DNA of 64,000 bases from Candidatus Aminicenantales bacterium (GCA_049512315.1 JBEKXF010000012.1:1-64000), one strand, 5' to 3'. Positions 24,572-60,287 are shown, numbered from the stretch's first letter. The notes: generated by a model from the letters alone, not told the origin. Made by a program: numbers and translations.

Positions 24572-24781
24572 AATTACGGTGACACACAACCAATTACCGA
24601 AATTGTCTAGCTTCCCCGAACTCATCTTTCTTTGAAATCGCCCGGCAAGGTGATTACCCGAGGCTTCCCTTGTCGGGATCGCGCCATCCCACAAGCTCTA
24701 TATTTAATTATAAAATTCAAGCCGGCTGGACGATTTTCGCCCCATCGCGTAATTAGGGATTTCGTTGTGTGTCCCCGAAAT
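24572..24781. repeat. Family A REP-like inverted pair (REPIN-like)
   Basis: AATTACGGTGACACACAACCAATTACCGAAATT (24572-24604, +) and its inverted variant ATTTCGGGGACACACAACGAAATCCCTAATT (24751-24781, -), between convergent genes. Confidence 0.85.
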
Positions 24782-24785
24782 GGGC

Positions 24786-27620
24786 TTACTTCAGATCGAC
24801 CGTTTCCGCTGCGCCGTAATAGATCCCGTTGAACAGAAGCTTGAAGGTCGCATGGGGTTGGCCGCGGAAGGCGATCTCTGGTCCATAAAGGAAAAGCTTC
24901 CCCTTCCCCACCTCGGCTTCGGCGACCTGGACGCTCCGCCACAGGTACTGCTCGCCCCAGGCCCAGCCGCTCCGGAGAAGCTTCCCCGTGTCGAACCAGG
25001 CCACTGGCCTGACGCCCCTCAACCCGGCGTCCGGCAGGAGCTCGAAGGAGGGCGTGTTGTCGAAGAAAACGTCCACCGTATCCGGCATGCCGCAGGCCAA
25101 CGGGTTCGTCGTGTCCAGCCGGGCCCTCATCAGGGACCCGGGCACGAAGAACTTCTCCATCCCGAGCGGCTTTTCCTTGCCGTCCGCCGTTTTCTCGACC
25201 AGGGCGTTGGCGACCGGGAGGCCGAAGTGGTAGGCCAGGGCCGTGGCCGTATCCAGCGCCAGCACCGTTCCTCCCTCCTCAACGAACTGCCGGATCTTCG
25301 GGACCGTCTTGTCCGCCGTGATGCGCCCGATCCGGCTTCGATATTCGGCGGGCACGTTCTCCGGCGCCGCCGCCTGGAAATCGCGGAAGCTCGTCTCGCC
25401 GGAGTCGGCGGGCTGAACCCTGGGGATCGACCCTCCGACGAAGATGAGGACATCGAACTTGCTCTTGAGGTTCCCCTCGTCCAGGGCGGGCGCGAACACG
25501 AGCTCGTAGGGGAACTCGAACTGCTCGAGGAGCCAGCGGATCCAGCCCGAAGCGATCGACCCGCCGTACGTGTCCCAGAGCCCGATCCGTGGCAGTTTGA
25601 GCTTGAAGGCCTCGCCTTTCGGAGCCGCATCCAGCCTCTCGATCGTCAGTCCGATGTCGCGGGCCGCTTTTTCAAGGACCGAGCGGACTGACGGCGTCGC
25701 GGGCACGTAGATCGTCCCCGCGGGATAACTCTTCCCGGCCGCCGCGAGATCACTCTTCAGCCAGTAGGCCTCGCCCCCCGCCTTGAGGGCCCTGTTGACG
25801 GCGATAAACGTATCGTTGACCCGATGGTCCAGCACGTACCCGGCGGCACCAGCCTTCGCCTCCAACCGGCCCGCCGGTGGCTTGATGATGTCCGCGACGG
25901 CCTCGAACGTCCCGTCGAATCCGTCGAGGATCCTGTCGAAGGAGACCCCCATCTGGAAGGCGAGCGTCCAGCCGGCGGCGTCGTAAGGCGGCACGGGCGG
26001 TCCGCCCGGATAGGCCAGGTCGTTCGGATGGTCCTGCGGCTCGAACATGGACAGGACGTGCGGCCGGAAGGCCTGGGCCGTCTTCACGACGTAGGAACCC
26101 GTGGGATAGACCTTGCCGCTCGCGGCGAATTCTTTCGAGGCCCGGAGCACCTCGCAGCCATTCTTCAAGAGGGCGTTGACGAACTTCACGGCCGTTAGGA
26201 AATCGGCCTGGTCCGAGGGGATGACGTAGCCGCGCGGGTCCCGGGCGTCCTTGTCAAATAGGAGGTCGTAGTACTTCATCGGGACGCCGACGCGACCTCG
26301 CCCGGAGCCGCCCGGCCCGGACCCCGACGCCGCCTCCTGGCCTCTGTCCTTGGCCACGGCCGCCTCGACCTTGGCCACGCTCCCCGGCACGATCGTCCAC
26401 GAATCCTGACTCCCCTTCTCGATCGCGTGTTTGCCCATCAGGTAGCGCCGGTAGAGGAAATCCTCCCGGTTCTTGGAGGCCACGTCCATGATGGCCTTAT
26501 CCGCCGTGACGGCATATTCGATGGACTGGCGGAAGTGCCATTTCTGCGGGGCGATCGGATAAGGATAATCCTCCTCGGGCAAAAGGCGCTGGGGGATGAA
26601 TGGGATGTCGACGGGGGTCGGGCTGCCGATCGCCTCGGTCAGGATGCCGATGATGTTGTGGAAATAGGCGGTACTGCGAAGCCCGCCGTTCCACCAGGTC
26701 GAGTACGAGGCCCCAGAGCGCATGATCGCGCCGGGCTTTCCCTCGGCAACGAACCGGTTGTGCATGGCCGCGCTCACGAGGTCGATCCCGACCGGGATGA
26801 GCGGGTCGAAGACATAATTGAATGGGTCGCGGAAGGGCGGGGCGAAGAGGACCGTGCCGGCCGGCCCGGTCTGATGGTGATTATAGAGGATCTGAGGGTG
26901 CCACTCGCGGTAGAGCACGCGATTGACGGCTTCGGTCTCGGGCTGGGTGGCCATGTAGGAATCGCGGTTGTTGTCGTGGCCGATGTATTTCTGATAGAGG
27001 ACCGGGACCCCGGTCATTGAACGTTTGGCGGGGTCTTTCTCCCGCATATACCAGTTGGCCACGAGCTCCAAGCCATCGGGATTGGAGGGCACGGCGAGCA
27101 GGACGACGTCGTCAAGGAGGCGCCGAGTCTCGGCATCGTCCCGGCTCACCATCTGCCAGACGAGCTCGATGAGCTGCTGTGAGCCAAGGATCTCGGTTGC
27201 GTGGAGGCCGCCGTCGATCCAGACGACGGCTTTGCCCTCCGCGGCCAGGCGGCGGGCTCCGGCATCGTCGAGCCCCTTGGCCAGGGCCAGGCGCCTCGCG
27301 ATATCTTTATAGCGGTTGAGCCGGCCGTGGTTTCGGGGCGAAGTGATGATCGCCATGACCATGGGGCGGCCCTCGGCCGTCCTGCCGATATCGACGAGCG
27401 TCATCCGGTCGGACTCGGCGTCGAGCTTCTTCCAGTAGGCCAGAAGCTTGGTGTAGTTGACGAGTTGATAGTCGTCGCCGACGTTAAAGCCGAACTGTTC
27501 CTTGGGGCTCGTGACCCTGGCCTCGGCCTGGAGAGACCCGAGGGCCAGGATGAAAGCCAGGAGGCCGATGGTCGCCCGAACGCTTGACCCGAAGCGGAAG
27601 CCGTGGTTGCCGAAGTTCAT
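24786..27620 (-). CDS. Secreted M14 zinc carboxypeptidase-like protein
   Basis: GGLHATE (HxxE), NPDG, DNNRD, HHQ; C-terminal class-I GATase-like domain. Start set at ATG 27620 after a GGAGG RBS. Confidence 0.88.
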   Translation of the reverse strand: MNFGNHGFRFGSSVRATIGLLAFILALGSLQAEARVTSPKEQFGFNVGDDYQLVNYTKLLAYWKKLDAESDRMTLVDIGRTAEGRPMVMAIITSPRNHGRLNRYKDIARRLALAKGLDDAGARRLAAEGKAVVWIDGGLHATEILGSQQLIELVWQMVSRDDAETRRLLDDVVLLAVPSNPDGLELVANWYMREKDPAKRSMTGVPVLYQKYIGHDNNRDSYMATQPETEAVNRVLYREWHPQILYNHHQTGPAGTVLFAPPFRDPFNYVFDPLIPVGIDLVSAAMHNRFVAEGKPGAIMRSGASYSTWWNGGLRSTAYFHNIIGILTEAIGSPTPVDIPFIPQRLLPEEDYPYPIAPQKWHFRQSIEYAVTADKAIMDVASKNREDFLYRRYLMGKHAIEKGSQDSWTIVPGSVAKVEAAVAKDRGQEAASGSGPGGSGRGRVGVPMKYYDLLFDKDARDPRGYVIPSDQADFLTAVKFVNALLKNGCEVLRASKEFAASGKVYPTGSYVVKTAQAFRPHVLSMFEPQDHPNDLAYPGGPPVPPYDAAGWTLAFQMGVSFDRILDGFDGTFEAVADIIKPPAGRLEAKAGAAGYVLDHRVNDTFIAVNRALKAGGEAYWLKSDLAAAGKSYPAGTIYVPATPSVRSVLEKAARDIGLTIERLDAAPKGEAFKLKLPRIGLWDTYGGSIASGWIRWLLEQFEFPYELVFAPALDEGNLKSKFDVLIFVGGSIPRVQPADSGETSFRDFQAAAPENVPAEYRSRIGRITADKTVPKIRQFVEEGGTVLALDTATALAYHFGLPVANALVEKTADGKEKPLGMEKFFVPGSLMRARLDTTNPLACGMPDTVDVFFDNTPSFELLPDAGLRGVRPVAWFDTGKLLRSGWAWGEQYLWRSVQVAEAEVGKGKLFLYGPEIAFRGQPHATFKLLFNGIYYGAAETVDLK

Positions 27621-27673
27621 GGGCCTGCCCTCCTCGAACATTGATCATGAGAAACGATGTGTGCTGCCCGATA

Positions 27674-30424: not shown

Positions 30425-30526
30425 GAGACACCTCGAAGGAAGGAAAATCGGGGATCGCGGGGGAACGTTCGCTCGCCCATGGATATGGGATTCTTCACCT
30501 ATTCGAGGCCCGATGTCAAGCCGGGG

Positions 30527-31531
30527 TCAATGGCTGGAAAAGGTGACGGAGAAGGCGGGCGAGCCGTGGGCGACGCCGGCAGTGGTCGTCACGTGGTAGC
30601 GGCTGCGGTGATTGCGCACGACCAGGCGGCCGATGACATAGCCGAGGACGCCGCCCACCAGCGAGTCCGAGAGCCAGTGCTTGTTCTCGGTCGTCCGCGA
30701 CAGCGCTACACCCGTGGCCGTCGTATATGCCAGGATGGGCACCCAGACGCTCTCCCGATATTGCATGGCTACGACCGTGGCCAGGCTGAAAGCCGTGATC
30801 GAGTGTCCCCCGGGGAAGGAATCGTATCTCCCCGTCTGCCCCGATTCGAACCTCTCGAAAAATCCGACCGGCCCGGACCAGTGGTCGACCCCATCGGCCC
30901 AGAACGGTCGCTGCCGCCCGAAGATCCCCTTGAGGAACGTGACCAGGATATTACTCTGCACCATCGCGCTGGCGGCCAGGACGGCGGTCTCGGTCGATTT
31001 CTTATCGCCGCCGATCAAGCCGACGCCCAGGAACACCGCCGCCGTCCCCCAGGCCCCGTAGGACCCCATCTGGGTAATGACCGGGCTGACTCCGCGGACC
31101 CAGGCATGTGCCTCCCGATAATTCATAAACCCCCGGTGGATCGCCTCGTCGTTCGCGATCAGGAGTCCGGTGAGGGTTGCCAAGCCCGCGATGGGCAGGA
31201 TATCACGGCTCCGGATGTGGACCGGGTAGCTCCAGATTTGCCCGGCGTCTTTCAGGAAATCGCGGGAAATGGATCTGAACGAGAATTCCCCGCCCCGAGG
31301 CGGGGCGGCCGGAAGAGAAGGACCGGTCGCCTGGGGAGTCGAAAGAGAGAGAGTCGGTGGGACGGCCGGGGTGGGAGCCGGTTGAGCAGCGGAGGCCCCG
31401 CAAATCGATAGCGAGAAAAGTTGCGAGAGCCTGTTCTCCGGCACCTCGGAAGCTTGATCCCTCGCGACGAGCTGGAACGGGAGGGCGGCCAGCAGCAGGA
31501 AGACCGCGGCCCAGATCATGTTTTTCTTCAT
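30527..31531 (-). CDS. PAP2 family phosphatase
   Basis: K....R.RP, SFPGGH, SR....KHWLSD...G motifs; signal peptide. Confidence 0.87.
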   Translation of the reverse strand: MKKNMIWAAVFLLLAALPFQLVARDQASEVPENRLSQLFSLSICGASAAQPAPTPAVPPTLSLSTPQATGPSLPAAPPRGGEFSFRSISRDFLKDAGQIWSYPVHIRSRDILPIAGLATLTGLLIANDEAIHRGFMNYREAHAWVRGVSPVITQMGSYGAWGTAAVFLGVGLIGGDKKSTETAVLAASAMVQSNILVTFLKGIFGRQRPFWADGVDHWSGPVGFFERFESGQTGRYDSFPGGHSITAFSLATVVAMQYRESVWVPILAYTTATGVALSRTTENKHWLSDSLVGGVLGYVIGRLVVRNHRSRYHVTTTAGVAHGSPAFSVTFSSH

Positions 31532-31667
31532 CTCTATCTCGTCCTTCTAAGAAGATTCGCGGCACACGATACCGAATCCCATTGTTTCTTATCTTAACAA
31601 AAAACCCGGAGCTTGTGAATCCGGAGGAATGGGATACAATATGGGTGTCCCCGAGGGAGAGGTTGGC

Positions 31668-32237
31668 ATGAAAAAAAGAGGCATTTGCCCGGTCATCATC
31701 CTGCTCGTTCTCACGGCTGGGGCCTTCGCGGCCGCCCGCGCCGGCGCTTCCGCCCCGCGTCCCGGCCGGGGACAGGAGCAGGCTGAGAGGCCGAAGCTTT
31801 ACGCCCGCAGAGTCATGTTCGAGCAGAACGTGAAAAACTCCGGGGACGCCCTGGGAGAGCCCGACGGGCGCTTCGCCGAGATCGCTCCCGGCGGCCAGCT
31901 GGTCCTCCTCCTGGAGGACAGGATCTATCCGTCCGGGAGCTTCGACGCCGGGGTCGTCGTCACGAGGGAAGAGTCGCAATACGGCCTGGAGGGCTGGTTC
32001 CTGGTGGGCGGCACGCCGGAGGACCCGCAGTTCGCCTGGATGCCCCTAGTCAGGGGCCAGTCGCCCAGGAGCTTCCGCGTGGCGGTCCGGGAAGCGATTG
32101 AGGGGAGCGCCGGCCTGAACATGATCCGGATCTCCAACGCCGGCACGAAGCCGATCCTGCTCGACGCCGTCGTCGGCTACGGCCGGAAGGAGACGGGTGG
32201 GCGGAAGCCTGCCCTTGTCGGCCGCCTCCCGCTGTGA
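31668..32237 (+). CDS. Secreted hypothetical protein
   Basis: Signal peptide after a GGAGAGG RBS; 'ALGEPDG...GGQLVL...LDAV' suggests a beta-sandwich; GC3-biased codons. Confidence 0.65.
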   Translation: MKKRGICPVIILLVLTAGAFAAARAGASAPRPGRGQEQAERPKLYARRVMFEQNVKNSGDALGEPDGRFAEIAPGGQLVLLLEDRIYPSGSFDAGVVVTREESQYGLEGWFLVGGTPEDPQFAWMPLVRGQSPRSFRVAVREAIEGSAGLNMIRISNAGTKPILLDAVVGYGRKETGGRKPALVGRLPL

Positions 32238-32359
32238 TAAGATAGAAGACTAAAAACCGGGCAGGACAGAGTCAAAACCGACCGTTTCCCCACCCGCGAG
32301 AAGTCATTTCGGCCGACCCTCGTCCCCTTGTGTTTTAAAGGATTGGATAAAGGATAAAA

Positions 32360-33634: not shown

Positions 33635-33691
33635 ACCGCGGACGGGGAGAAAGACCCGCGTCGCGATCCGATCGGGGTCGCCCTTCTCATC

Positions 33692-34585: not shown

Positions 34586-34596
34586 GGGCTCTCTCC

Positions 34597-35982: not shown

Positions 35983-36024
35983 CGAGAGCCTCCCGGCGCC
36001 GGCGCCTGATGCGACGTTTTTTTT

Positions 36025-36873: not shown

Positions 36874-36892
36874 AGAAGGAGGGACGGCCCGG

Positions 36893-38613: not shown

Positions 38614-38699
38614 TGCCGGGGGCCGGGCTCGAACCGGCATGGGGCTTGCGCCCCGAGGAATTTTAAGTCCCTTGCGTCTGCCAATTCCGCCACCCCGGC
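38614..38699 (-). tRNA. tRNA-Leu (anticodon UAA)
   Basis: Minus strand GCCGGGGTGGCGGAATTGGCAGACGC-AAGGGA-CTTAAAA-TTCCT-long variable arm-GCCGGTTCGAGCCCGGC-CCCCGGCA; acceptor stem pairs; CCA not encoded. Confidence 0.95.
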
Positions 38700-43027: not shown

Positions 43028-45376
43028 TCAGCGGACGACGATCTCGTCGACGAAGACCCAGGACGGACCACCGGCCGAGACGTGCCAGTCGGGCAGACGC
43101 TTCGTCCCTTCGATGCGGAAACGGACAAACCGCACGGAACCTTCGAAAGGGCCCTTCCAGGCAAAGGGTCGGATGACTTCCTCCCCCTGGTGGTCGCCCT
43201 CAACCGCGATCGCGCCGACGTCGTGAAAGGAGGAGCCGTCGGAAGATACGGAGCACGCGACGCGGTCCGGATGAAGGATCCAGCTCCGGAAGTCCGAAAG
43301 CGTGCTCAGGGAGATCTCCCGCGCCGCGACCGGCTTCCCGAGATCGAGCGTCAGCGTGAAATCGAGGCCCTCCCAGCCGAGCCAGTGGACCTTGCAGTCG
43401 CTCGCCCCGCGGACGCCGTTCGTCAGGATGCTCAGGTCCCCGTTCGCGTACTTGGGCGAAGGCAGAGGATCAGCCGCGACCGGCCGCCGGAACGCCAGGT
43501 TGCCCTCGACCTGGACGTCGATGAAGCGCTTCGCGGCGTCATAATAATCCCTGGGCGTGAGGCCCGACTCGCTGAGCGTCCGGACCCCGCCCGCCTCGCA
43601 CCTCGCATAAAACTCATCGAGGAGGCGCGCCATTTCCGGCTTCGCAGAGAACCTCCCGTCCTTTTCGGCGTAGAAGCCGCGCGGCCCGAACATGTCGTTC
43701 TTGCCGATCTCGAGCATGGCATACATCAGGGGGAGCCGCGCCGTCCTCACCCGTCCGAGCACCGCGGGGTCGCCGGCCGCGGCAGCTTCCGCCTTGTCGA
43801 AGAGGGAGTTGTAGGCCGAAACGTCCGCGGCCGATAAGTAATCTCCCGCGTGGACTGCCGGCGGCTCGTAGATATCGAGCTTCCCCCCCGTCCGCTCGAG
43901 CGCCCCGCGCACGGCGTCGATGTCTCCCCGGATGAATGGTCCGGCCTTCCCGTAATAGCCGTTGAGGAATTCGTTCATCACGGCGCTCGCATCCGCCTCC
44001 GGGTTCCAGAGGAGTCGCGCCAGAAGGTACGACTTGAGCTCGCTGAACTCATGCCCGGGGCTCGTGTTGGTCTGCTGGAAATGCTGGCGGACGCCGTGGC
44101 GGACGAAGAAACGGATGTTGGGCTGGAGGACGTGGAGGTTCGGGAAGGGCGAGACGTGGTGCGAGAAATTGACCGTGTAATCCCAGAGATAGAGATTGCC
44201 GCAGATCCGGCTCCAGTCCTTGATATCGCGTACGAACGACCGGCTCGACGGGTCCTCGTCGATGGGCAGGCTCCGGTTGAGCTCGATCGTGCAGAGCATG
44301 ACCTGGACGTTCGGGGCCGGCGGGGTCAGGCGCGGGGCCGGGCGCGAATACTGGTAGGCCAGGGTCGAGATGGTCTTGTCCGGGAAGAGGGCGGCCACAC
44401 GGTTCACGAAGCGGATGACCGGCCCGGCCGGCGAGCCCTCCTCGTCGATCGTCTTCCGGCACTCGGGACACTGGCAGTAGGAGAGATTGTCGTTCTGGCT
44501 GACCGACCAGATTTGCTTATCCGGCTGGGCAGCCATCTCCTCCCTGAGCCTCGCGACGACGATGTCGAAGACCTCGGGCCGCGACAGGCAGGGCTGGTCG
44601 ATGACGCGCTTGCCGTTCACCAGGGCGAAATACTCGGGGTGGTCGGCGAAGTACGTCTGCCAGGGAACGAGCTTCTGGAGGGTGTGGACGTAATAACCCT
44701 TCCCGTAAAGGTCGTCCTGGACGTGGAGCCTCATCCAGTCCCGGTAATCCGGGTCCTGGGCAAACTCGCCGTAGACGATGCGCATGGCATTGACAGGATT
44801 ATCGAGGTCGAAGGTGCAGCCCAGGACGACGTCATCCCGATGGGGGAAGAATTCGACGGTCGGACTGTATTTGCGGCAGCCGAAATATTTTTCGAGGAGA
44901 TGGACGACTCCGTAGATCGCGCCCTTTCCGCTCCCGCTCACGATATAAAGGTTCCGAAGGGACGTGGCGATGATAAAGCCATCGTTGCGAAGGGAAGAGA
45001 TCTGGGACCTGAGCTCCGGGGGCAGGTCTTTTTGCGGGAAGCCGATGGCGGCGACGTTTTCGCGGCCGGGCTCGCCCGCCGTCCTGATCGGCACGACCAC
45101 GCCGCTCATCTTTTGAACGGATGACTGGAGGATCTGCGCGGCGCGCTGCTCGGTCGCGCCCGCATCGTTCGGGATCTCGATCGCGCCCACAGGCCGGCCT
45201 TTGTCCACAAAGACAAAAGCCCGCGAGCACGGGCTGGACTGGACCGGTGCCGGCGCCGGGGCTGTTCTGGCCGTCCCGCCGGGCGCACACGCCGCCGCCC
45301 AGACGAGCGCCGCCGCGAGAATCAGAAAAATGGGGTCGGGCCTCAGTATCTTATTGTTATTAATTAATTTAGTCAT
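43028..45376 (-). CDS. DUF4838 domain putative glycoside hydrolase lipoprotein with C-terminal discoidin-like domain
   Basis: Lipobox AAAC; GH67/GH20-type N-domain (DGF....GAIYGV..LLE); HPEYFAL..GKR, QPCLS.P, SVSQND...YCQC..C, LAYQY, WDY, LLWNP. Confidence 0.82.
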   Translation of the reverse strand: MTKLINNNKILRPDPIFLILAAALVWAAACAPGGTARTAPAPAPVQSSPCSRAFVFVDKGRPVGAIEIPNDAGATEQRAAQILQSSVQKMSGVVVPIRTAGEPGRENVAAIGFPQKDLPPELRSQISSLRNDGFIIATSLRNLYIVSGSGKGAIYGVVHLLEKYFGCRKYSPTVEFFPHRDDVVLGCTFDLDNPVNAMRIVYGEFAQDPDYRDWMRLHVQDDLYGKGYYVHTLQKLVPWQTYFADHPEYFALVNGKRVIDQPCLSRPEVFDIVVARLREEMAAQPDKQIWSVSQNDNLSYCQCPECRKTIDEEGSPAGPVIRFVNRVAALFPDKTISTLAYQYSRPAPRLTPPAPNVQVMLCTIELNRSLPIDEDPSSRSFVRDIKDWSRICGNLYLWDYTVNFSHHVSPFPNLHVLQPNIRFFVRHGVRQHFQQTNTSPGHEFSELKSYLLARLLWNPEADASAVMNEFLNGYYGKAGPFIRGDIDAVRGALERTGGKLDIYEPPAVHAGDYLSAADVSAYNSLFDKAEAAAAGDPAVLGRVRTARLPLMYAMLEIGKNDMFGPRGFYAEKDGRFSAKPEMARLLDEFYARCEAGGVRTLSESGLTPRDYYDAAKRFIDVQVEGNLAFRRPVAADPLPSPKYANGDLSILTNGVRGASDCKVHWLGWEGLDFTLTLDLGKPVAAREISLSTLSDFRSWILHPDRVACSVSSDGSSFHDVGAIAVEGDHQGEEVIRPFAWKGPFEGSVRFVRFRIEGTKRLPDWHVSAGGPSWVFVDEIVVR

Positions 45377-49021: not shown

Positions 49022-49208
49022 CGTTCCACTCTCGGCTCGTATCCTTTCGACGCGCCTTCCCGGCGAAAAACAAGTTATCGCGCGTCCCGGCCGAAGTCAA
49101 GGCTCGGCGGGGCCGTCATGAACGGGCAGCTTGCGCGGATGATGACGCGAGCGTCCGCCCTCTCTTGCATCGGGGCCACGAAATGGAGAAGAATAGGCTT
49201 CAGGTCCG

Positions 49209-51491: not shown

Positions 51492-51551
51492 ATCCCGACT
51501 AAATTGATGGGCCCAAAAATGCGGGGCGTGCTAAGATAACGGCAAGGGGAC

Positions 51552-52328
51552 ATGAAAAAGAACCGAGTTCTCGCCTGCGCCGTCGCTCTCTCCTTCTGCC
51601 TGCCCCTGGTCGCCGGCGCCGACATCCGTGTCCTCGGGACTCTGAGCGTCGAGCCGGCCCCGGAGTGGGGGCGCAGGGCGACGGACCTCACGATCGCCCG
51701 GGAATGGTGGTTCGCCCGGGACCGGATGGCGTTCATCACCCAGGACTGGCGATTCGTTTTCGACAAGACCCGCGGTCGCATCCTCGTCATCAACACCACG
51801 GACCGGTATTTCGTGGAGGCGGGCATGACGGCGGACTCACTTGAGCTCGTCGACCCCGGTTACGTCGGAGCCCTCGGCCGTTTCCGGGCCAACGGGGCCG
51901 TCGAGAGATCCCCGAAAAAGAAGACGGTCCTCGGCCGGGAATGCGCGGGCACGGTCGTCTCGGAATGGCTTGTCAACGACAACCAGCATTTTTTCGACAG
52001 GGATAGGACGATCTACGCCACCACCGACGTCCCCTTCGACTGGCGCCTGAGCCGGGACCTCGCCGCGTGGATGCTCTCCTTCTTTAATCCCGAGATGACC
52101 TATTTCGGGGGGATGCGGTCCATCGAGGGATTCCCGCTGGCCGAGACCGATGTCTACGTCCGGAACACCCAGAGGATGGCCTACGGCACCGAGGTCACGG
52201 ACATCCGGGAGGCGACTCCGCCGGGCGGCTTCTACGACATCCCCGAAGGATTCAGCCGGAGGGAGAAGCTATCCCAGCGCGACCTCCTCGCCATGCGCCA
52301 GATCCTTTACCTCGTCTATTACTTCTGA
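51552..52328 (+). CDS. Secreted hypothetical protein (DUF4412-like)
   Basis: Signal peptide; 'KKTVLGREC...IEGFPL...FYDIPEGF' pattern. Confidence 0.6.
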   Translation: MKKNRVLACAVALSFCLPLVAGADIRVLGTLSVEPAPEWGRRATDLTIAREWWFARDRMAFITQDWRFVFDKTRGRILVINTTDRYFVEAGMTADSLELVDPGYVGALGRFRANGAVERSPKKKTVLGRECAGTVVSEWLVNDNQHFFDRDRTIYATTDVPFDWRLSRDLAAWMLSFFNPEMTYFGGMRSIEGFPLAETDVYVRNTQRMAYGTEVTDIREATPPGGFYDIPEGFSRREKLSQRDLLAMRQILYLVYYF

Positions 52329-52330
52329 TC

Positions 52331-52471
52331 AATTTCGGTGACACACAACTCAACCACTCAATTCCCCCGGAAATTGGGTTTTCCAAATGGCGAACACGGT
52401 ACCCATTCCCGAATTTGTCTGCAGGCGGTATTTCGGTAATTAGATATATGTCACCGAAATATCACCGAAAT
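52331..52471. repeat. Family A REP-like mosaic (3 units)
   Basis: AATTTCGGTGACACACAACTC... (52331, +), degenerate unit ending CCCGAATTT (52385-52416), inverted unit ATTTCGGTAATTAGATATATGTCACCGAAAT (52430-52460) followed by a duplicated TCACCGAAAT. Confidence 0.88.
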
Positions 52472-52488
52472 AGGCGAAGAGGCGGATC

Positions 52489-55443
52489 TCAGGGCTCGGC
52501 CGCGGCCCGGGCCGCCGCCTCGATGGCGATGGCCGCGACCGCGGACCCGTAATCGAGGTCGATATTCCCCATCGTGTCCTGCGTGTCGTGATAGCCGGTG
52601 CGGTTGATATCGTAGTTTTCCATGAAGAGCACGACCGGCACGCCGACATCCGAGAAGATCTGGCCGTCGGTGTTGAACAGGGAACTCAGAGGGTTCTCCG
52701 GCGTCCGGATCTCGCCGAACAGCCGGGGATAGAGGGCGATCTCCGGCAGGCGGGCCGGGTCGGGACTCCGCTTTCCGCGCCCCCGCCCCCGGCGCTCGGG
52801 GCCCCGGTTCCCGTCCTCCGCTTTCAGGTTCCAGATCCGGTTGGCCGCATAAGCGTGCCGGGCGAGCTTCAGTGAACCGGCGCCCCTCCCCGGGGACATC
52901 TGAAAGACGTCCCGCTCGCTGTCCAGGTTGTGGGCGATCATGTCCATGACGAAAACCCCCGCCACGCGCGTCCCGGCGAGGTTGACGGTCTCGCCGCCCG
53001 CGAGTCGCATCCGGAGCGACCCCTCCACCAGAGTCCGGCAGAAATGGCGTGCGCCCATGCAGTCGGCCGGGAACTCCTCGCCCGTGAGATGGAGCAGCCA
53101 GACATCCCGCTCGAGGCGCCCCTCCTTGGCCAGCCTCAGGAAAACCGGCCCCGCCCGGAGGAGCGTCGCTGTCGCCGAATGATTGTCGTCCGCTCCGGCG
53201 GCCGCGATCCGGACGCCGTCCCCGCCTCTGGACTTGTCGTACCGGTCTTCCATGTAGGCCGTGTCGTAATGGTCGGCCAGGACGATCGCTTCCCGACGGT
53301 TCTTCCCGGGGATGACGACCAGGATGTCCCGCTCATGGGTCTTCCCGTCCTGGTTTTCCTTCCAGCCGCCGAAGATCGAGTAATCGAAATCCGTCTTCCA
53401 GTAGAACGGGACCTCGCCGCAAAGGGCCGTCCCTTTCATGCCCGCCGCCACGATGGCCTGCCGGTGGCGGTCCATGAGATAGTCGCCGAGGGCCTCGAGG
53501 TCGCGGCGACAGTGGGAGAGACAGCTCAACGTCAGGGGGTCCTGGGCGCAGTCGGCGTTGTCCTTGTTGACATAGCGGCCGTGGGCGAGAAGCGCGATGT
53601 CGTTCCAGAGGCCCTCCTCGAAAGCGCGCGTGGCGGTCTCGGCGTAGGTCACGGATTCTGAAACGACATGGGCCGCCCCGGCGGATCCCGGCGCGGACGC
53701 GGCCGGCGGTTCGAGGATCCGCCCGATCTCGCGCTGGATCGCCCGCCCTTTCGGGGGGTCCGCCGACCGATCAGCCAGAGAGGAGGACCAGGCGTCGAGC
53801 GACTCCTCTTCGGCCAGGCGCAGGAGGTGCCGGGCAAAATCCCGCGGTAACGGCCGGCCGTCGAGGAGCGTATGGCTGTTCAATAGGGCCAGGATATTCA
53901 GCGGCGTCTGATGCGTGTAATGCTCGCGCAGATGATCGCAGATCCGCAGCGCTTCGAGGTAGGTTTCGCGGCGGAGAAACCGGGGCCAGAGAAAGAGCGG
54001 ACGGGCCGGGTCCGGTGGATCCGCCCGATAAGCCGTCAGGCAGCCGAGCGGCGCTCCGGGCAGGACCTCGGCCCGCGACTTCTCTTCCGACCAGAAGGCC
54101 GCGAGCGGCCGGTGCCAGTAAATCTCGTGGCGTCCGACCCGCATCGCCGGGAATTGGAAGCGATAGCTGAAAAGCCCGCCCTTGGCCACCGCCTCGCCGG
54201 CCGCGTAAATCTGACCGGGATCGGCGTTCGGCCCGTCGAGGAGCAGCCGCGAATCCTCGGTCCAGATCTGGCAGTTCCGGGCCAGGGGTTTGTCGTAAAG
54301 GCCGATCGCGTCGGGCGCGGTGCTGAAGAGGACCCTGGCGACCCGGTCCTCGAGCCTGCTCAAGGCCACATCATCCTCGTAGCGGCGGACGCGGTTCCAG
54401 CGGCTCGTCCGCTTGTACGTGTTGAGCAGCAGCTCCCCATGGATCTCCGGGGGAACCCGGCCGGTCCCTTCTTCATGAAGCCATCCCGACTGCGGGATGC
54501 GGAAGCCGCCGGGCGCGCCATGACGGGCCGCGAGGCGCTGCAGGGAAATCTGCATGGCCAGGGGCAGCTTTTCCTGGAGGCGGATATAGTCGCGCTCCCC
54601 CCAGAAAACGAGGCTTCCCGGGTAAGGCAGCAGGACGAGCTTCCCTGAAAAATAGCGCTGTTTGACCTTCTCCGGAAGGCGGGCGAAGGGCCGGAAGGTC
54701 AGGAGATAGCGAACGTCGTCGAAGGCCGCCGCCCCCGCGTCGACGAGGAGCGGCGCCGTCCAAGAAGGAAGGGCGGCCTCAATCCAGTACGGGAACCGCG
54801 GGTCCGGCTCCGTCGGCAGGACCCGGAACCCGGTCGGCCGAAGCCCGGCTGAGCCTTTAACGGGCTCGCCGTACACTCGGGAGAGAAGATCGACCAGGAA
54901 GGCAAGCGATCCGCTCTCTGGAAGCTCCCGGTCCGGAGCCGAGCGGAATCCCTTCCAGAAGGCTTGTTCGGGCCCCTGCTCGCTCGACCCGAAAAACGTC
55001 CAGCGGACGCGCCCCTTATCATCCTGGGTCCTCGACAGGGCCAGCGGGAGAAAAACGACATAGCACTCGCGGCCGAGCAGCGCGGTCCGGGCCAGAAGCT
55101 CGGGCGGGCAGTAGGGATTGTCGACGAGGTTCCGGCCTTTGTGCCCGGGGATGCGGAATTCGGGCTTGCCCCGCCCCAGCCTGACGAGGGCCCCGACGAT
55201 CTCCTCGGCGAGATGCTCGAGCCCCGGCTTGAGCTCGTACTCCTCCTCGATCTCGGGGATCGCCCAGCCGTAGGGGTCATCGTCCGAAAAAGGCAGGGCT
55301 TCCCGGTCACCGTAGGGCTTGCGGCCGAGCCGCGGCGGCGGCATGAATTCCGAGTAGGCGGGAAGCGGGAAGCTCCCTTTGCCGTCCAGCCACGGGAAGC
55401 CCTCCATCAGGAGCCGCCAGCCGGTCGGGGTGGTCGGGCTCAT
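52489..55443 (-). CDS. Large protein: about 640-aa N-terminal region of unknown function fused to a C-terminal M28 metallopeptidase domain
   Basis: C-terminal DHYDT, GADDN.S.T, TGEE, MDMI, YH...D motifs; no signal peptide. Confidence 0.78.
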   Translation of the reverse strand: MSPTTPTGWRLLMEGFPWLDGKGSFPLPAYSEFMPPPRLGRKPYGDREALPFSDDDPYGWAIPEIEEEYELKPGLEHLAEEIVGALVRLGRGKPEFRIPGHKGRNLVDNPYCPPELLARTALLGRECYVVFLPLALSRTQDDKGRVRWTFFGSSEQGPEQAFWKGFRSAPDRELPESGSLAFLVDLLSRVYGEPVKGSAGLRPTGFRVLPTEPDPRFPYWIEAALPSWTAPLLVDAGAAAFDDVRYLLTFRPFARLPEKVKQRYFSGKLVLLPYPGSLVFWGERDYIRLQEKLPLAMQISLQRLAARHGAPGGFRIPQSGWLHEEGTGRVPPEIHGELLLNTYKRTSRWNRVRRYEDDVALSRLEDRVARVLFSTAPDAIGLYDKPLARNCQIWTEDSRLLLDGPNADPGQIYAAGEAVAKGGLFSYRFQFPAMRVGRHEIYWHRPLAAFWSEEKSRAEVLPGAPLGCLTAYRADPPDPARPLFLWPRFLRRETYLEALRICDHLREHYTHQTPLNILALLNSHTLLDGRPLPRDFARHLLRLAEEESLDAWSSSLADRSADPPKGRAIQREIGRILEPPAASAPGSAGAAHVVSESVTYAETATRAFEEGLWNDIALLAHGRYVNKDNADCAQDPLTLSCLSHCRRDLEALGDYLMDRHRQAIVAAGMKGTALCGEVPFYWKTDFDYSIFGGWKENQDGKTHERDILVVIPGKNRREAIVLADHYDTAYMEDRYDKSRGGDGVRIAAAGADDNHSATATLLRAGPVFLRLAKEGRLERDVWLLHLTGEEFPADCMGARHFCRTLVEGSLRMRLAGGETVNLAGTRVAGVFVMDMIAHNLDSERDVFQMSPGRGAGSLKLARHAYAANRIWNLKAEDGNRGPERRGRGRGKRSPDPARLPEIALYPRLFGEIRTPENPLSSLFNTDGQIFSDVGVPVVLFMENYDINRTGYHDTQDTMGNIDLDYGSAVAAIAIEAAARAAAEP

Positions 55444-55452
55444 GGGGTCAGC

Positions 55453-56787
55453 TCACGATCCCGCGAGCCGCACGGGATCCGCGTTCGGCACGGCTTGATA
55501 GGACACGTAGCTTCCCCGCCGGTCCCTGGCCACGGGCATTCGCATGAGCCAGGTTCCCTGCCGCACCTCGACGGCCGTCCATGCGGCCGGAACGTATGTT
55601 TTCAGGGTGAGCGGCAGGTCGTAGACCCCGGCCGCGAGGTCGTGCCCCACCGTCACGTCGATCACGTCCCCAGCCCGCGAGGCCTGGACCCGGGCGTGCA
55701 TGCGCTCTCTCATGTACTTCGTCACATCCTGGAATGTCGCCACCCAGATCTGATCTTGCTTCGACTTGATGTAGCCGAAATATTCCGTGAGCTCCGCGCC
55801 CGTCTTCGGTTCCCAACCGATGCCGTCGACGCCGTGGAAGACGAGCACGAGCCACATGTTGTCGTGCGCGGCGACCGTGTCGATCCACGATCTCATCAGG
55901 CTCATCGGGGTTTTCGTCAGGGCCCCGCGCTGCCACTGCACGTACTCTTTCGTGGACGCGGCCGGGTCCTTCACGCTCGAGCGGTCGAGCTCTTCCAGGA
56001 ACGGCTCGGGCAGGCGGTTCCGCGACGCCGGATAGCGGGCGAGCGCATAACGGAGGACCCGCTCGTCCTCGGTGCCGTAGGGACATTCGACGGTGAAAGT
56101 GTGCTTGGGGCCGAGGTGATCGAGGATCTCCTTGCGGCTCTTCTCGAGCTCATAAACAAGGTTGGCCTCGTCAAGGACCGCCAGGCGGGGATGCGTGACC
56201 GTATGGCTGGAAAATTCGTAGCCCCGTTCCGCCAGCGCCTTCAGCTCATCCCACGTGACCGCGTCCCGCTTCCCGGCGACGACATCCGATTTTGTTTCTT
56301 TCTGGAAAGCGCCGCGGCGTACCTTAGCGTAGGCCTCGTCGATCAGCCGGAAGGCCTCTTCGGCTTTGCCGTCCTCGTACAGCTCGCCGGCCCGGCTGTG
56401 GTATTCGAGAGTCCCGCGGAGGGCGAGGTGGCCGATCGCGGAGGCCCGTTCGAAAAAATTGTCACTGTTGGTCGGCACGCCGGCGGTCTCACGGATGATA
56501 GCTCGGGTCGGGCGGCCGATGAACGTGCCGGGGTATCGGGAGCCCGGAATGTCGCCCGTGATGATGTGGAAGGTCGCGGGGAAGCCAAGCCCGTTCATGA
56601 TGGGCACCGCGACGCGGAACTGGTTGATGCTTTTATCATCAAAGGTCAGCGAAACCGCCGCCCGCTTTTCGAACCGCCACTTGGCGATCTCCGTTTGTCC
56701 TACTTCGGCGTCTTGGCCCGGAGAGGAGCGAAGGGCGAGGCAAATGATCCCCGCCATGGCGAGCCAAGAACAGGTCACGCGCTTCAT
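55453..56787 (-). CDS. Secreted polysaccharide deacetylase (NodB/CE4-like)
   Basis: AVSLTFDD, ATF.I, GYEFSSHTVTHP.L, PYG, WLVLVFHG. Start ATG 56787 after GAGGAGG. Confidence 0.82.
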   Translation of the reverse strand: MKRVTCSWLAMAGIICLALRSSPGQDAEVGQTEIAKWRFEKRAAVSLTFDDKSINQFRVAVPIMNGLGFPATFHIITGDIPGSRYPGTFIGRPTRAIIRETAGVPTNSDNFFERASAIGHLALRGTLEYHSRAGELYEDGKAEEAFRLIDEAYAKVRRGAFQKETKSDVVAGKRDAVTWDELKALAERGYEFSSHTVTHPRLAVLDEANLVYELEKSRKEILDHLGPKHTFTVECPYGTEDERVLRYALARYPASRNRLPEPFLEELDRSSVKDPAASTKEYVQWQRGALTKTPMSLMRSWIDTVAAHDNMWLVLVFHGVDGIGWEPKTGAELTEYFGYIKSKQDQIWVATFQDVTKYMRERMHARVQASRAGDVIDVTVGHDLAAGVYDLPLTLKTYVPAAWTAVEVRQGTWLMRMPVARDRRGSYVSYQAVPNADPVRLAGS

Positions 56788-56840
56788 CCGAACCTCCTCG
56801 TCCGAACCAGGCACCGCGCCGCGTCTCTTATTTTGCCCCA

Positions 56841-57002
56841 AATTTTGGTGACACACAACTCCATCGCTTAATTTCTCCTCCGAGATAGGGACACCATACT
56901 TATTTCCGAATTTCACAGCCTGCGTGAATTTCGGCATAGAGTCGAGTGTCACCGAAATTTTGCCTGTGAGAATTCTGGTAATTAGTTGTGTGTCACCGAA
57001 TT
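56841..57002. repeat. Family A REP-like mosaic (4 units)
   Basis: Units at 56841 (+, AATTTTGGTGACACACAACTC), 56886 (+, GGGACACCATACTTATTTCCGAATTT), 56927-56959 (-, AATTTCGGTGACACTCGACTCTATGCCGAAATT) and 56971-57002 (-, AATTCGGTGACACACAACTAATTACCAGAATT). Confidence 0.9.
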
Positions 57003-58221
57003 AGGGGAGGCGGGAGCCCCAGCCGGTTTCGACGGCATAATTCATGCACCTGGCGAAAATCCCGTAATCGAATTCCGGGCAAACGATGCCTTTGCGCTCG
57101 AGGATGGGCCGGGATCTCGCCGTCTCGAAAACCCGGGCATCCCTCATGTAGGGCCCGTAAGCCTCCACGTAATGATCGTAGAGCGCCTCGAGGGGGTTCC
57201 TGGGTTTCTCCCTGAATTCCTCCGGGCCGCAAGCCCTGATTCCCGTCATCCGGAAAAGGCGGCAGCTGTAGTCGATGATGTCCCCGATCCGTTTCGCCCG
57301 GCCGTTGACGATATGGAAGACGCCTCCGCCGGGTGCTCCCTCCATGATCGCTAGGAACGCCCCCGTGAAATAATCAACGGGGATGAGGTCGATGCCTCCC
57401 TCGCCCGCCACTTCGATCCGTAAGGGAAGATGGATCGAGCCGTCGGCATCGATCCGCACCCCGATTTCGGCGGCCTTTCGGCCCCCGCGCTCGCGGATGT
57501 CTTTCTCATAGACGTCACGGATAAAGAGGGCCGTCCGCACGGGGAAATAGACGGCATTGAAGAGGAGGCTTCTCCCCGTCCGCGAATCCCCATAGACGAT
57601 GGACGGCCGATAGATCGTCAACCCTAAGCCCGCCTCTCCGCAGGCCGCCGCGGCCGCATGTTCGCCCCGGCATTTCGTCTCTTCGTAGGCGTTCCAGAAC
57701 TCGCAGGGCGTCACGAGGTCTTCGGGGCAGACGCCGGTCGTCTTGCCCGCGACAAACGCCGTGCTCACGTGGTGAAAAAAATACGCTTGGCTCTCACGGG
57801 CGAATTCCAGGACATTCGCGAGCCCAGCGCTATTGACCTCCTCCACCTCTTCCCTTTTCCTCTCGGAAAACGCCGTATTCGAAGCGCAGTGAATGATCTC
57901 GTCCGTCTCGAGAAGCAGCCCTCGCACGTCCTCCGCGGGAATGCCCAACCCCGGCCGCGTGATGTCGCCCTCGACGGCCCTGAGCCCTCGACGGTCGCCT
58001 TCCGACAGGCCGAACCAATCGAGGAGCCCGCGCACCCGGTCCTCTGCCCGCCGCGCGCCGCTCGAGCGGGCGAGGAGCGTAACGCGGAAACCCCGCCTGA
58101 GAAGCTCGACGGCGATGTGACTCCCCAGGAACCCGGTCCCGCCCGTCAGGAAAAAGCGGGTGGAGCGGTCCGTTCGCTTTTTCTCGATCTTCTCCCGGGA
58201 GATCCGCGCGGCGCTCGTCAT
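57001..58221 (-). CDS. Extended SDR, NAD_binding_4 (male-sterility / thioester reductase / fatty acyl-CoA reductase-like)
   Basis: FLTGGTGFLG, VEGDIT.P.LG, IIHCAS, HVSTAFV, N.YEETK..GE, YRPSIV.GDS.TG, PVDY. Confidence 0.85.
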   Translation of the reverse strand: MTSAARISREKIEKKRTDRSTRFFLTGGTGFLGSHIAVELLRRGFRVTLLARSSGARRAEDRVRGLLDWFGLSEGDRRGLRAVEGDITRPGLGIPAEDVRGLLLETDEIIHCASNTAFSERKREEVEEVNSAGLANVLEFARESQAYFFHHVSTAFVAGKTTGVCPEDLVTPCEFWNAYEETKCRGEHAAAAACGEAGLGLTIYRPSIVYGDSRTGRSLLFNAVYFPVRTALFIRDVYEKDIRERGGRKAAEIGVRIDADGSIHLPLRIEVAGEGGIDLIPVDYFTGAFLAIMEGAPGGGVFHIVNGRAKRIGDIIDYSCRLFRMTGIRACGPEEFREKPRNPLEALYDHYVEAYGPYMRDARVFETARSRPILERKGIVCPEFDYGIFARCMNYAVETGWGSRLP

Positions 58222-58272
58222 CTCATCTGCCTTCTCACGCTTTCTGCACCCCGCACCCCCTCCGCAGCCGCC

Positions 58273-60126
58273 CTAGTCCAGGCGATAGAGGAAGTTCTCC
58301 TTCCGCGAGCAGCCCTGGGAAAAGACATACATGAGGAACGTGACGCCCTTCGTTTTGGCCGCCAATCCGTCGAGCCACGGCCCGATCTCGGTCATGGCGT
58401 CCGCGATTTTCTTTTTGTCGGCGGGGTCGGTGTGCTCGATGTAATAGTCGTATTCGAGGATGGCCCGCTTCCCGAAGTCCATCGGCGTCAGGAAGCCATA
58501 GTCGTGCTCGATCTTGCGGGCATCGGCGATCCGCACGAAACCGGCGATGATGCCGTTGATGACCTCGATCTTGTCGAGCGGCACGTAAACGAGGAAGGCG
58601 AACATGTGCTTGCGTCTCGACATGCGGGCGCTGACGATCCGGAACATGTTGAGCCAGACCATGTCGGTCATCTCGGGCCGGGCGTAGAGCCGGGCATAAA
58701 ATTCCCTAAGGTCCTCGTCGACCGACCCGGCGATCGTCTCCGGCGACGGCTGGAGGACGGCCTCGACGACGGGCCTCATCTCCGGGCTGCAGAGGATCTC
58801 GTAGAGAGGCGCATTGCCTTCGTATGTCGAGGCGATCCCGGCGAGCTCGCTGTCGGCGAGCCGGGGCAAGCCGAGCATGAGCGTCCGGAAAAGCGCGCTG
58901 TCGATGACGGCCGTTCCGGCCATTTTCCTGATCGCCTCGCGGCCGTGGGCGTCGGCGACGGCGAAAACCAGGTACTTGATGCCCAGGACCTCGGGCAGGA
59001 GGTTCTTGATCTTCTCGGCGAGCTCCCGGGACGGCGACATGAAGTTCGAGATGTAGTGGCCGCCGAGGACGGCCAGGGCCAGGGCGAGCCGGCGCCGGCT
59101 CAGATCTCGGGCGAAAGCCACCGCCTTATCGAAACTTGTGAACGGCACGAGGATGCCTTCCTCGTCGTCGGTGACCGGATGGAGCTTGACCACGGCCTTC
59201 GTGCAGACGCCGGGAGACGGGATCATGGCGTGGTCGAAGGCGAAGACGTTCGGCGCGCTCTTGTCGTTGAGGCGGAAGACTTTGCCTTTCCGGTCCACGA
59301 ATTCCATGTCGATGAATCCGTCCGCGGCCGTCCCGTAGACGTTGGACCAGGTGGAGAACGTCCCCGTGCAGACGAGGTTGCCGCAGACGGTGGCCGCGGG
59401 CTCGGCGGCGTTCACACGGTAGCCCCGCTTATAGGCTTCCTTCTGGAGCTCGAACGACGTGACGCCCGGCTCGACGGCGACGCACCAGTTGTCCGCATCG
59501 AATTCGATTTTTCGCATCCGGTTCATGTCGAGGACGATCCCCTCGGTGAACACGAACCCGAAGACGCTCCCGCCGTTCCCCCGGATGGCGAAGGGGATCT
59601 TGAGCTCGTCGGCCAGAACCACGACCGCGGCGACCTCGTCCCTCGAGCCGGGCAGAACGACGTAGCGCGGCATCTGGATCCCGGCCAGAGGGAACGGATC
59701 GTCGGCGTAGGTGAACAGGATGGCCGGGTCGTTGGTCGCCCATTCGTCACCGACGATCGTTCGCAAGCGCTTCAGGACGGCGTCCTCTTTCGGCTTATGG
59801 ACCGGTTTTTTCGCGGCGAGGTGCTCGCGGACATGGTGCTTGAGCGCTTCCATGACCTTGACCGGCCGCATCCCGGTCACGAAATGGCACTGCTTGTCGC
59901 AGATGCCGCAGAGCGTGCAGGTGTCGGCGGCTTCGACCAGAGCTTCCGTGACAGGGATGAGATCTTCAGCCAGGGCGCGATAGAGGTCCATCCGCCCTTG
60001 GGGATAGAAAGCCACGTAATGCCTCTCCGGGCCCGAAGGACAGAGTCCGGTATCGAGATAATCGATCTTGCACATGGCATAGTGCCGGCACTGGGCGGCG
60101 GTTTTTCTGGCGCTTTCGTCGATCAT
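58273..60126 (-). CDS. Fe-S cluster / FAD-binding (PCMH-type, GlcD/Dld-like) oxidoreductase
   Basis: N-terminal C..Y.MC...CP and CTLCGICDKQC; then P..VVLP.SRDEV..VV..A....IP...RGNGG, LDMNRM, VEPGV. Start ATG 60126 after GGAGG. Confidence 0.8.
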   Translation of the reverse strand: MIDESARKTAAQCRHYAMCKIDYLDTGLCPSGPERHYVAFYPQGRMDLYRALAEDLIPVTEALVEAADTCTLCGICDKQCHFVTGMRPVKVMEALKHHVREHLAAKKPVHKPKEDAVLKRLRTIVGDEWATNDPAILFTYADDPFPLAGIQMPRYVVLPGSRDEVAAVVVLADELKIPFAIRGNGGSVFGFVFTEGIVLDMNRMRKIEFDADNWCVAVEPGVTSFELQKEAYKRGYRVNAAEPAATVCGNLVCTGTFSTWSNVYGTAADGFIDMEFVDRKGKVFRLNDKSAPNVFAFDHAMIPSPGVCTKAVVKLHPVTDDEEGILVPFTSFDKAVAFARDLSRRRLALALAVLGGHYISNFMSPSRELAEKIKNLLPEVLGIKYLVFAVADAHGREAIRKMAGTAVIDSALFRTLMLGLPRLADSELAGIASTYEGNAPLYEILCSPEMRPVVEAVLQPSPETIAGSVDEDLREFYARLYARPEMTDMVWLNMFRIVSARMSRRKHMFAFLVYVPLDKIEVINGIIAGFVRIADARKIEHDYGFLTPMDFGKRAILEYDYYIEHTDPADKKKIADAMTEIGPWLDGLAAKTKGVTFLMYVFSQGCSRKENFLYRLD

Positions 60127-60255
60127 GCCAAACCCTCCATCGTAGCTCGTTTGCTCGCGGCCGCGCTGACCTGCCGGTAGCCGAAAGAAACTTTGTCTGT
60201 CGTCAGTCCATTCCCTGCCCGTAGCCCAGTCATTTTTGTTATCCATTATACAAAT

Positions 60256-60287
60256 AATTCGGTGACACACAACTCATTACCGAAATT
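60256..60287 (+). repeat. Family A REP-like hairpin, single unit
   Basis: AATTCGGTGACACACAACTCATTACCGAAATT. Confidence 0.88.

Follow-up and report, generated by a model that had tools for sequence, protein, structure and literature searches.

The 64,000-nucleotide stretch analysed here (the window) comes from a Candidatus Aminicenantales bacterium (GCA_049512315.1 JBEKXF010000012.1:1-64000; G000:C12:1-64000 in our numbering) and carries AT-rich repeats, called family I, at four intergenic loci: 24572-24782, 52330-52470, 56841-57004 and 60255-60288 (loci 1 to 4). The genome, G000, is a 3.55-Mb metagenome-assembled genome (MAG) of 77 contigs with 60.8% G+C. The repeats are very probably a lineage-restricted family of the repetitive extragenic palindrome (REP) or REP doublet forming hairpin (REPIN) type, similar to the terminal inverted repeats (TIRs) of TIRtrons, and belong to a single-copy, vertically inherited Y1 transposase that resembles RAYTs (tyrosine transposases associated with REPs). 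We base this on the anatomy of the repeats, their association with the gene, the co-occurrence of the two across genomes, the extragenic bias of the copies, and the family and fold of the protein. A preliminary description of the window had proposed an undescribed, non-autonomous REP/REPIN-like repeat system. This reading is supported, as the units are dispersed, mostly extragenic and have an HUH gene of their own that they flank. "Undescribed" holds for the sequence family, which is new and comes from an uncultured Aminicenantes lineage, but not for the kind of system, which has been published (PMC3733652, PMC6006769).

Six matches to the Pfam family Y1_Tnp were found in G000. One of them, a 230-aa open reading frame (ORF) at G000:C18:60680-61372 whose product is called P0001, is bracketed by inverted family I units at 60537-60569(+) and 61401-61433(-), with a tRNA gene on one side and an rpoD-like gene on the other. 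This is the HUH nuclease gene that the preliminary description had expected elsewhere in the genome, and the expected flanking by units was found in G000 as well as in two relatives, G002 and G006. P0001 contains the motifs NHVH, WQ, RYVECNP and PWSS, and across 13 homologues N59-H60-V61-H62 is invariant while Y119 and N123 are nearly invariant. The protein scores 45 bits against Pfam Y1_Tnp (cut-off 23) and 18.6 bits against the NCBIfam model NF033573 transpos_IS200, which is below the cut-off of 55. The sole solved relative detected by sequence is 4ER8, the E. coli TnpA-REP (E 5e-4), and the HUH and Tyr/Asn motifs of P0001 align with its HMH and Y-I-Y-I-N-P stretches. An AlphaFold model of P0001, made with the 13 homologues, has a predicted local distance difference test (pLDDT) value of 87.6, and its top Foldseek match is 4ER8_A (E 4e-9, template-modelling (TM) score 0.74 on the target), with the IS608, ISDra2 and IS200 transposases behind. 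The C-terminal 91 residues (140-230) gave no Pfam match at E<=10; this part of the model has confident helices at 158-204, and the sequence has a conserved block, TGRP.G..F...LE..TGR. The gene is single-copy in G000, where the next paralogue is 42% identical.

The distribution of the repeats follows that of the gene. An exact search for a family I 26-mer among 185,579 species genomes returned 30 stretches in 3 records, all of which are MAGs of Candidatus Aminicenantales/Aminicenantes. When up to 2 mismatches were allowed in 41 genomes of the order, 35 copies were found in G000, 38 in G002, 14 in G003 and 61 in G006, and 0-1 in each of the other 37 genomes, four congeners included. G000, G002, G003 and G006 belong to one genus with 8 members in the set, so that 4 of the 8 congeners have the repeats, and 3 of those 4 have the RAYT orthologue. 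Orthologues of at least 83% identity occur besides G000 in G002 (90%) and G006 (83%) alone, and both (on G002:C41 and G006:C21) are likewise flanked by inverted units. The 2.9-kb tRNA-RAYT-rpoD locus is syntenic in these genomes, with 91% identity in G002 and 83% in G006. The G006 orthologue was considered as a pseudogene on the basis of a reported in-frame TGA; this was rejected, as the codon is an earlier natural stop that leaves a 220-aa ORF. At the tRNA-rpoD site, G001, G004 and G007 have 220-295 bp of unrelated spacer, and the syntenic site in G003 (G003:C14:258154-258229; L069 about 2849-2924) is 76 bp long with no RAYT and no units. Family I is at its smallest and most degenerate in G003, where exact copies also make up the lowest share of the units; this would fit decay after loss of the RAYT, but the assembly is only 62% complete. 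Four bases, ACGG, remain at the G003 site after the conserved host sequence CGTCAATT, at the point that corresponds to the start of the G000 element; they may be left over from an excision or may be due to chance.

Family I was collected across G000 with an ungapped nhmmer profile of 37 nt, for which 46 of the 47 matches to the 13-mer core GGTGACACACAAC at <=1 mismatch served as seeds; the dropped seed (G000:C8:48885) has a coding-like context and lacks unit flanks. The core has 33 exact matches, 47 at <=1 mismatch and 85 at <=2 mismatches, and many of the 2-mismatch matches are plain chance matches within coding DNA. In the whole genome the profile yielded 56 units (E<=1), of which 52 reach E<=0.01, and contig C12, with 2.5% of the genome, holds 12 units. 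The 4 units with E>0.01 were excluded from the conservation, covariation, position and tandem-copy analyses (n=52).

The consensus of the 52 units is TCTATTTCGGTGACACACAACTAATTACCGAAATTCG, and its G+C content of about 38% (counted by eye) against 60.8% for the genome bears out the striking AT-richness that had been described. The block CGGTGACACACAACT is 81-100% conserved per column and the 3' stem half (TACCGAAAT) 63-96%. The best-conserved portion of the unit is therefore a 15-nt sequence block and not the stem, and the variable loop of the preliminary description in fact forms the element's core. Self-pairing of the consensus is possible between ATTTCGGT and ACCGAAAT, plus one G-T and one A-T, with a potential of 8-10 bp and 907 of 1166 cells paired. 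A compensatory stem change in the unit at 24749-24782 had been taken as a sign of selection on structure. The change is real, but it is a single T-A to G-C replacement in 1 of 52 units, two other stem pairs of the same unit are broken, and no stem pair of the family covaries convincingly, so the argument for selection is not supported. The resulting GGGG core is also the form of a sister family (family II, below) and of a published motif.

Most units are arranged in inverted doublets. There are 22 adjacent (+,-) pairs within 300 bp, which span 72-211 bp with the conserved core always outermost and give long hairpins (-11 to -38 kcal/mol, DNA parameters); single units number about 9 in G000, and 20 of 30 MAG loci also carry a (+,-) pair. 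An A-type arm (TAAATAC[AC]CTAAAT) is joined to a B-type arm (TAATTACCGAAAT) in 13 of the 22 pairs. Additionally, in 10 of the 52 units the outer 8 nt recur just beyond the conserved end as a partial copy in tandem (<=1 mismatch), compared with only 2 of 52 at the opposite flank, and a unit flanking the RAYT gene has two such copies (G000:C18:60510-60536). These copies could result from slippage or could be a footprint of cutting and rejoining.

The many copies and the intergenic bias that the preliminary description anticipated were both found. Of the 52 units, 36 lie wholly outside the ORFs of a crude gene-calling heuristic (binomial P about 1e-21), although these ORFs take up 88% of the genome. 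Nine units lie more than half inside an ORF; seven of these touch the ORF end and the other two form a pair within a long helicase gene. The units make up 32 clusters, of which 7 lie between convergent, 16 between tandem and 9 between divergent genes, compared with 372, 1448 and 372 in the background. There is therefore no strong tie to gene 3' ends. It could be proposed that the units are operators or nucleoid-protein sites that form a regulon signal, and that their location around the transposase gene is incidental or autoregulatory. A 15-nt block that is better conserved than the stem would suit such sites, as would the clusters between divergent genes, where promoters are expected. We consider this highly unlikely, however, because the clusters occur in all gene contexts, one pair is in frame within hrpA, the genes beside the window units (peptidases, a short-chain dehydrogenase/reductase (SDR), a deacetylase and an ATP-binding cassette (ABC) ATPase) are functionally unrelated, the family's occurrence across genomes follows that of one transposase orthologue, and paralogous transposase genes have their own variant units.

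The inverted pair in the HrpA-like helicase gene lies outside the window at G000:C44:14140-14267 (L074 2141-2268). The protein has 1383 aa with the domains DEAD, Helicase_C, HA2_C, OB_NTP_bind and DUF3418, and the pair is located between HA2_C and the OB fold and corresponds to about 43 extra residues. At the same spot, one degenerate in-frame unit is found in G003, and a short linker with no unit in G001 and G004.

Another possibility is that the units work mainly at the RNA level, either as 3' hairpins for the termination or stabilisation of transcripts or as small RNAs, and persist on that account, the link to the transposase being no more than historical. Their positions lend this some appeal: the unit at 52330 begins directly past the stop at 52328 of the gene 51552..52328, the unit at 56970-57004 lies over the stop at 57001, and the stop codon of the locus 1 gene is supplied by the unit itself in G006 and G003. 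The stability of the paired hairpins points the same way, and many copies are positionally conserved across species. Scans of 51500-61000 and 23500-26000 give a different picture, as none of the 11 terminator-like sites in these two stretches overlaps a unit, no promoter-like site does so, and the terminator-like sites are at the level of shuffled sequence (9 vs 8.4 and 2 vs 2.4, respectively). Moreover, the stems are AT-rich with no T-run, covariation is lacking, and the clusters have no bias to gene 3' ends. The sole Rfam match in the window at gathering thresholds is the tRNA at 38614-38699(-), and thus no unit matches an Rfam family, a point that the preliminary description had raised. A primary role as RNA is accordingly improbable, and a secondary one would be compatible with a REP-type system, as such roles are reported for classical REPs in the part of PMC3733652 that treats them.

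Within the window, 8 family I units were detected, 7 of them with E<=0.01 (nhmmer, model from seed units), and all four loci have at least one (Table 1). The 14-mer core has 11 matches at <=3 mismatches where 2.49 would be expected, a count that was reached in 0 of 100 shuffles. The AT-rich repeats at four intergenic loci are therefore real. The preliminary description had counted about 10 units; 8 belong to family I, and the other 2 are degenerate middle units, of which the one at 56887-56910 comes from family II. The pattern match to the latter has a chance expectation of 0.01 in the window. The middle unit of locus 2 was matched by neither family pattern search, and its assignment is from alignment alone. 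The right arm of this locus is adjoined by a partial tandem copy of its own outer end (52461-52470). Three further points of the preliminary description were borne out. Loci 1 and 2 sit between convergent genes; loci 2 and 3 have a common composite layout according to their alignment, both being mosaics of two families; and the stop codon (57001-57003) of the gene 57001..58221(-), which is SDR-like (NAD_binding_4/Epimerase, Pfam), lies inside a unit.

Table 1. Repeat units at the four loci of the window
Position	Strand	Feature	Support
24572..24605	+	Family I unit, left arm of 211-bp inverted pair, convergent genes either side	nhmmer E 9.4e-9
24749..24782	-	Family I unit, right arm of locus 1, variant core GGGGACAC	nhmmer E 8e-6
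52330..52363	+	Family I unit, left arm of locus 2 composite element	nhmmer E 7.3e-6
52394..52418 (approximate bounds)	+	Degenerate middle unit, end CCGAATTT	Aligned with locus 3 sister-family unit
52428..52460	-	Family I unit, right arm of locus 2	nhmmer E 3.2e-5
56841..56873	+	Family I unit, left arm of locus 3 composite element	nhmmer E 6e-5; aligned with locus 2
56887..56910	+	Family II (sister family, GGGGACACAATAC...TTTCCGAA) unit within locus 3	Pattern match, 2 mismatches
56927..56959	-	Degenerate family I unit, weak	nhmmer E 0.47; core with 2 mismatches
56970..57004	-	Family I unit over stop codon of SDR-like gene	nhmmer E 1.5e-8
60255..60288	+	Single family I unit, between FAD_binding_4 gene start and ABC-transporter gene stop	nhmmer E 7.8e-10

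Of the 32 clusters, the four window loci, along with the hrpA site and the RAYT locus, were compared with the corresponding sites of related genomes. At locus 1, a unit lies downstream of the same left-flank gene in G002 and G003, and only its 5' half is found in G006. The G006 site was considered as an empty site and rejected because of this retained half unit, so locus 1 gives no clean case of presence and absence. Locus 2 in G004 has no unit, and the convergent genes are about 7 bp apart (about 10 bp by eye). In G006 a single compact pair separates a 258-aa gene from the SDR-like gene. At the left junction of locus 4 (window 60236-60288; ..CCATTATACA..), G000 and G002 have a family I unit and G004 has a family II pair (G004:C69:10800-10914); in G006 a family I pair lies beside the ABC gene and the left neighbour is different. 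The end of a third family is found beside the ABC gene in G001 and G000, and one intergenic site has therefore been used by three repeat families. Clusters also differ by indels between species. The presence and absence among relatives that had been anticipated was thus seen at locus 2, where G004 lacks the unit, and outside the window at the hrpA site, but most window copies have counterparts at orthologous sites. From these alignments the comparisons indicate real differences between species and are not proof of current mobility.

The 4.5 kb between loci 2 and 3, with genes for an M28 peptidase and a polysaccharide deacetylase, are missing at G006:C48:10843-12638. A deacetylase orthologue is found on G006:C2, and G004 has the peptidase with no deacetylase match there. 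As the 4.5-kb difference is bordered by units (52330-57004), the breakpoints in gene content coincide with repeats.

The empty site at locus 2 also bears on another explanation, namely that the units are miniature inverted-repeat transposable elements (MITEs) left by a conventional (DDE) insertion sequence (IS) whose terminal inverted repeats they would represent. In general anatomy, the inverted pairs (72-211 bp, outer ends conserved) do resemble MITEs. The sole gene found bracketed by units, in three genomes, is of the Y1/HUH type, although no search for DDE genes was made; single units are common; and no direct duplication is evident when locus 2 is set against the G004 site, in a single by-eye comparison. 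A MITE origin is consequently extremely unlikely.

The surroundings of RAYT paralogues with 50-56% identity were also inspected, at 7 loci in other genera of the order. Three of the genes lie between inverted units that are related but distinct (GGGGACACAATAC..TTCCGAATT, CGGTGACAGTAAC..), three more have such units next to the gene without being bracketed by them, and one (L041) has unrelated repeats. Family II (GGGGACACAATAC..TTTCCGAA, <=2 mismatches) was found in 25 of the order's 41 genomes, among them all 8 members of the genus, with 11 units in G000, 37 in G001, 54 in G004 (22 exact) and 57 in G017. Its units flank RAYT paralogues of 53-56% identity in G003, G006 and G017, and G000 has its 11 units and no such paralogue.

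G000 has additional Y1_Tnp genes. In the 42% identical paralogue at G000:C15:68354-69010(-) (L004 1189-1866), the expected catalytic Tyr is replaced by Phe and the conserved Asn by Asp (RFIENDP). Beside the gene lies a self-complementary unit (GGTGACACGCACC...CATGTCACC) with just 4 sites in the genome, and the system may be inactive. Two more of the genes are bracketed by inverted repeats of their own, at C15:35734/36724 and C6:22052/23276. One such repeat family (TGGGGTCGGACC..) has 9 copies at <=4 mismatches, with three related copies in the window at 14636-14655(-), 45331-45350(+) and 60424-60443(-); the other is a repeat of 54 nt (AGGGGTCAAATC..) with 12 copies. G000 has in addition a true IS200-like gene (136 bits; G000:C44:9084-9449), separate from that of P0001.

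For family I, the mechanism that we infer, and the best supported, is mobilisation by P0001. On single-stranded DNA, P0001 would recognise the conserved core CGG(T/G)GACACACAAC together with the short palindrome next to it (ATTTCGGT...ACCGAAAT), and would nick and rejoin the DNA there. The units, usually in the form of inverted doublets with the capacity to form long hairpins, would be copied into or lost from extragenic sites in this way. Binding and cutting of the units by P0001, the position of the cut and continued movement of the units are all presumed here.

Several results weigh against assigning family I to a RAYT-driven REP-type system. P0001 scores 58.7 bits against the NCBIfam model NF047646 REP_Tyr_transpos, which is below the cut-off of 80 but much higher than its transpos_IS200 score, and neither the GTAG (GT[AG]G) foot nor CGTC is present on either strand of the 52-unit consensus. 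The hairpin within the unit has no covariation, with 0 of 11 pairs above column shuffles in 52 units; in 106 unique units (54 from three other genomes) 1 of 11 stem pairs is marginal (0.033), which is plausibly a subtype effect of the A-type arms. Over the whole unit, the likeness between partner arms does not exceed that between random arms (p 0.71), and a weak excess is limited to the core (p 0.024); we accordingly make no claim that doublets replicate as units. A unit is found at the orthologous sites of all four window loci in G002, of three of the four in G003 (as a single unit or remnant) and of three of the four in G006 (two beside a rearranged neighbour), and since the flanks of the compared genomes are 76-92% identical, most copies are old. 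Evidence of movement is confined to sequence comparison. Abundant though family II is in G004, its units flank neither of the two Y1_Tnp genes there; abundance without an identified cognate gene therefore does occur, although this assembly has 140 contigs. Finally, G000 is a 77-contig MAG with crude ORF gene calls, and the repeat counts are therefore lower bounds.

Judged by the protein motifs, the fold and the repeat core GG(T/G)GACAC, the nearest known kind of system is the TIRtron. Di Nocera (2013) described RAYT-like genes flanked by long inverted repeats that often contain GGGGWSAS and named them TIRtrons/TIRYTs; the TIR repeat families are moderately abundant and occur in dimers or clusters, as family I does (PMC3733652). 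The TIRYT group of Acidobacteria is sharply defined in that work, and in Koribacter versatilis a TIR repeat family is given for 1 of 3 TIRYT genes (PMC3733652). Quentin (2018) assigned most TIRYTs to TnpA-REP subclass 2.1, which the relevant entries characterise by NHVH, W[EQ], a YIELNP-like motif, an SS tail, a median length of 238 aa, "REP: no", and a C-terminal helix-turn-helix (HTH)-like domain with similarity to Bac_DnaA_C, HTH_23 or HTH_28 (PMC6006769). The subclass is equivalent to RAYT group 1 of Bertels (2017), whose genes have flanking 16-mers with about 12 occurrences on average according to the part of the study on this group (PMC5581495). P0001, with 230 aa compared with about 230-240 aa, shares NHVH, WQ, YVECNP and PWSS with the TIRYTs, and on motifs and length it may be placed in TnpA-REP subclass 2.1 (RAYT group 1). 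The family I consensus GGTGACAC matches GGGGWSAS at 7 of 8 positions, most copies having T at position 3, and the core of the unit at 24749-24782 and the sister units beside paralogous genes, GGGGACAC, match at 8 of 8. Protein and repeat agree with the subclass on every motif checked except for the T at core position 3 and the HTH-like domain, which was not detected by Pfam in P0001. There are two further differences, as the roughly 56 family I units exceed the reported group 1 average (PMC5581495), and the subclass entry of Quentin gives no adjacent REP-like sequences (PMC6006769) whereas a clear link was found here in three genomes.

The system described here therefore adds no new kind of element. 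It does explain a conspicuous AT-rich feature without a new signal, which guards against its mis-annotation as an operator, terminator or small RNA, and it provides a clean three-species example of a group 1/subclass 2.1 RAYT with cognate repeats, a link that has been weakly documented so far. The repeats are found at the edges of differences in gene content between species and in frame in a helicase gene. Together the genomes offer a natural series for the rise and decay of REP-type populations in an uncultured phylum, from gene with repeats, to repeats whose gene has been lost at the syntenic site, to a sister family without an identified gene. A broader proposal is tentative and, in our view, rather doubtful: the Aminicenantales might hold a radiation of subclass-2.1-type RAYTs, each with its own GGKGACAC repeats, in which families are born, replaced at the same junctions and orphaned, and the tandem copies of the outer 8-12 nt might be cut-and-rejoin footprints near ...CGGT/G (the slash marking the cut). 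If the tandem copies were such footprints, the cleavage site of an uncharacterised RAYT class would be readable from sequence alone.

Among the literature matches listed, none joined Aminicenantes with RAYT, REPIN or "extragenic palindrom", and the terms TIRYT and TIRtron were confined, among the matches listed, to PMC3733652 and PMC6006769. Compared with the classical REP/REPIN-RAYT systems of E. coli and Pseudomonas, as outlined in the portions of PMC3116915 that concern them, family I is alike in having a single-copy syntenic RAYT flanked by its own repeats, hairpin-forming inverted doublets, extragenic copies and repeats that track the gene, and the best structural match of P0001 is the TnpA-REP 4ER8. 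It differs in that the units have no GTAG foot, are AT-rich and not GC-rich, are conserved in a sequence block and not in the stem, and number tens and not hundreds, and in that P0001 falls below the NCBIfam REP_Tyr_transpos cut-off. The bacterial interspersed mosaic elements (BIMEs) of E. coli, where PMC6006769 treats them, are mosaics in which REP subtypes alternate, and here 13 of 22 pairs mix A and B arms and loci 2 and 3 mix families; in sequence, the subtypes and spacers of family I bear no relation to BIME motifs. Nunvar (2013) reported, in the part that deals with this question, that RAYTs and REPs co-diversify and that REP classes are partly replaced in an "orthoswitch" (PMC3686654). 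The diversification of RAYT paralogues with their repeats and the presence of family I or family II at the locus 4 junction are similar, but the two families here belong to paralogous genes at different loci and not to one syntenic gene with changed repeats. Lastly, the IS200/IS605 elements (IS608, ISDra2) share the HUH-Y1 fold and presumably a similar single-strand chemistry, while P0001 is present in one copy and not in several near-identical ones, scores well below the transpos_IS200 cut-off, and has as its ends inverted copies of one unit that also occurs alone.

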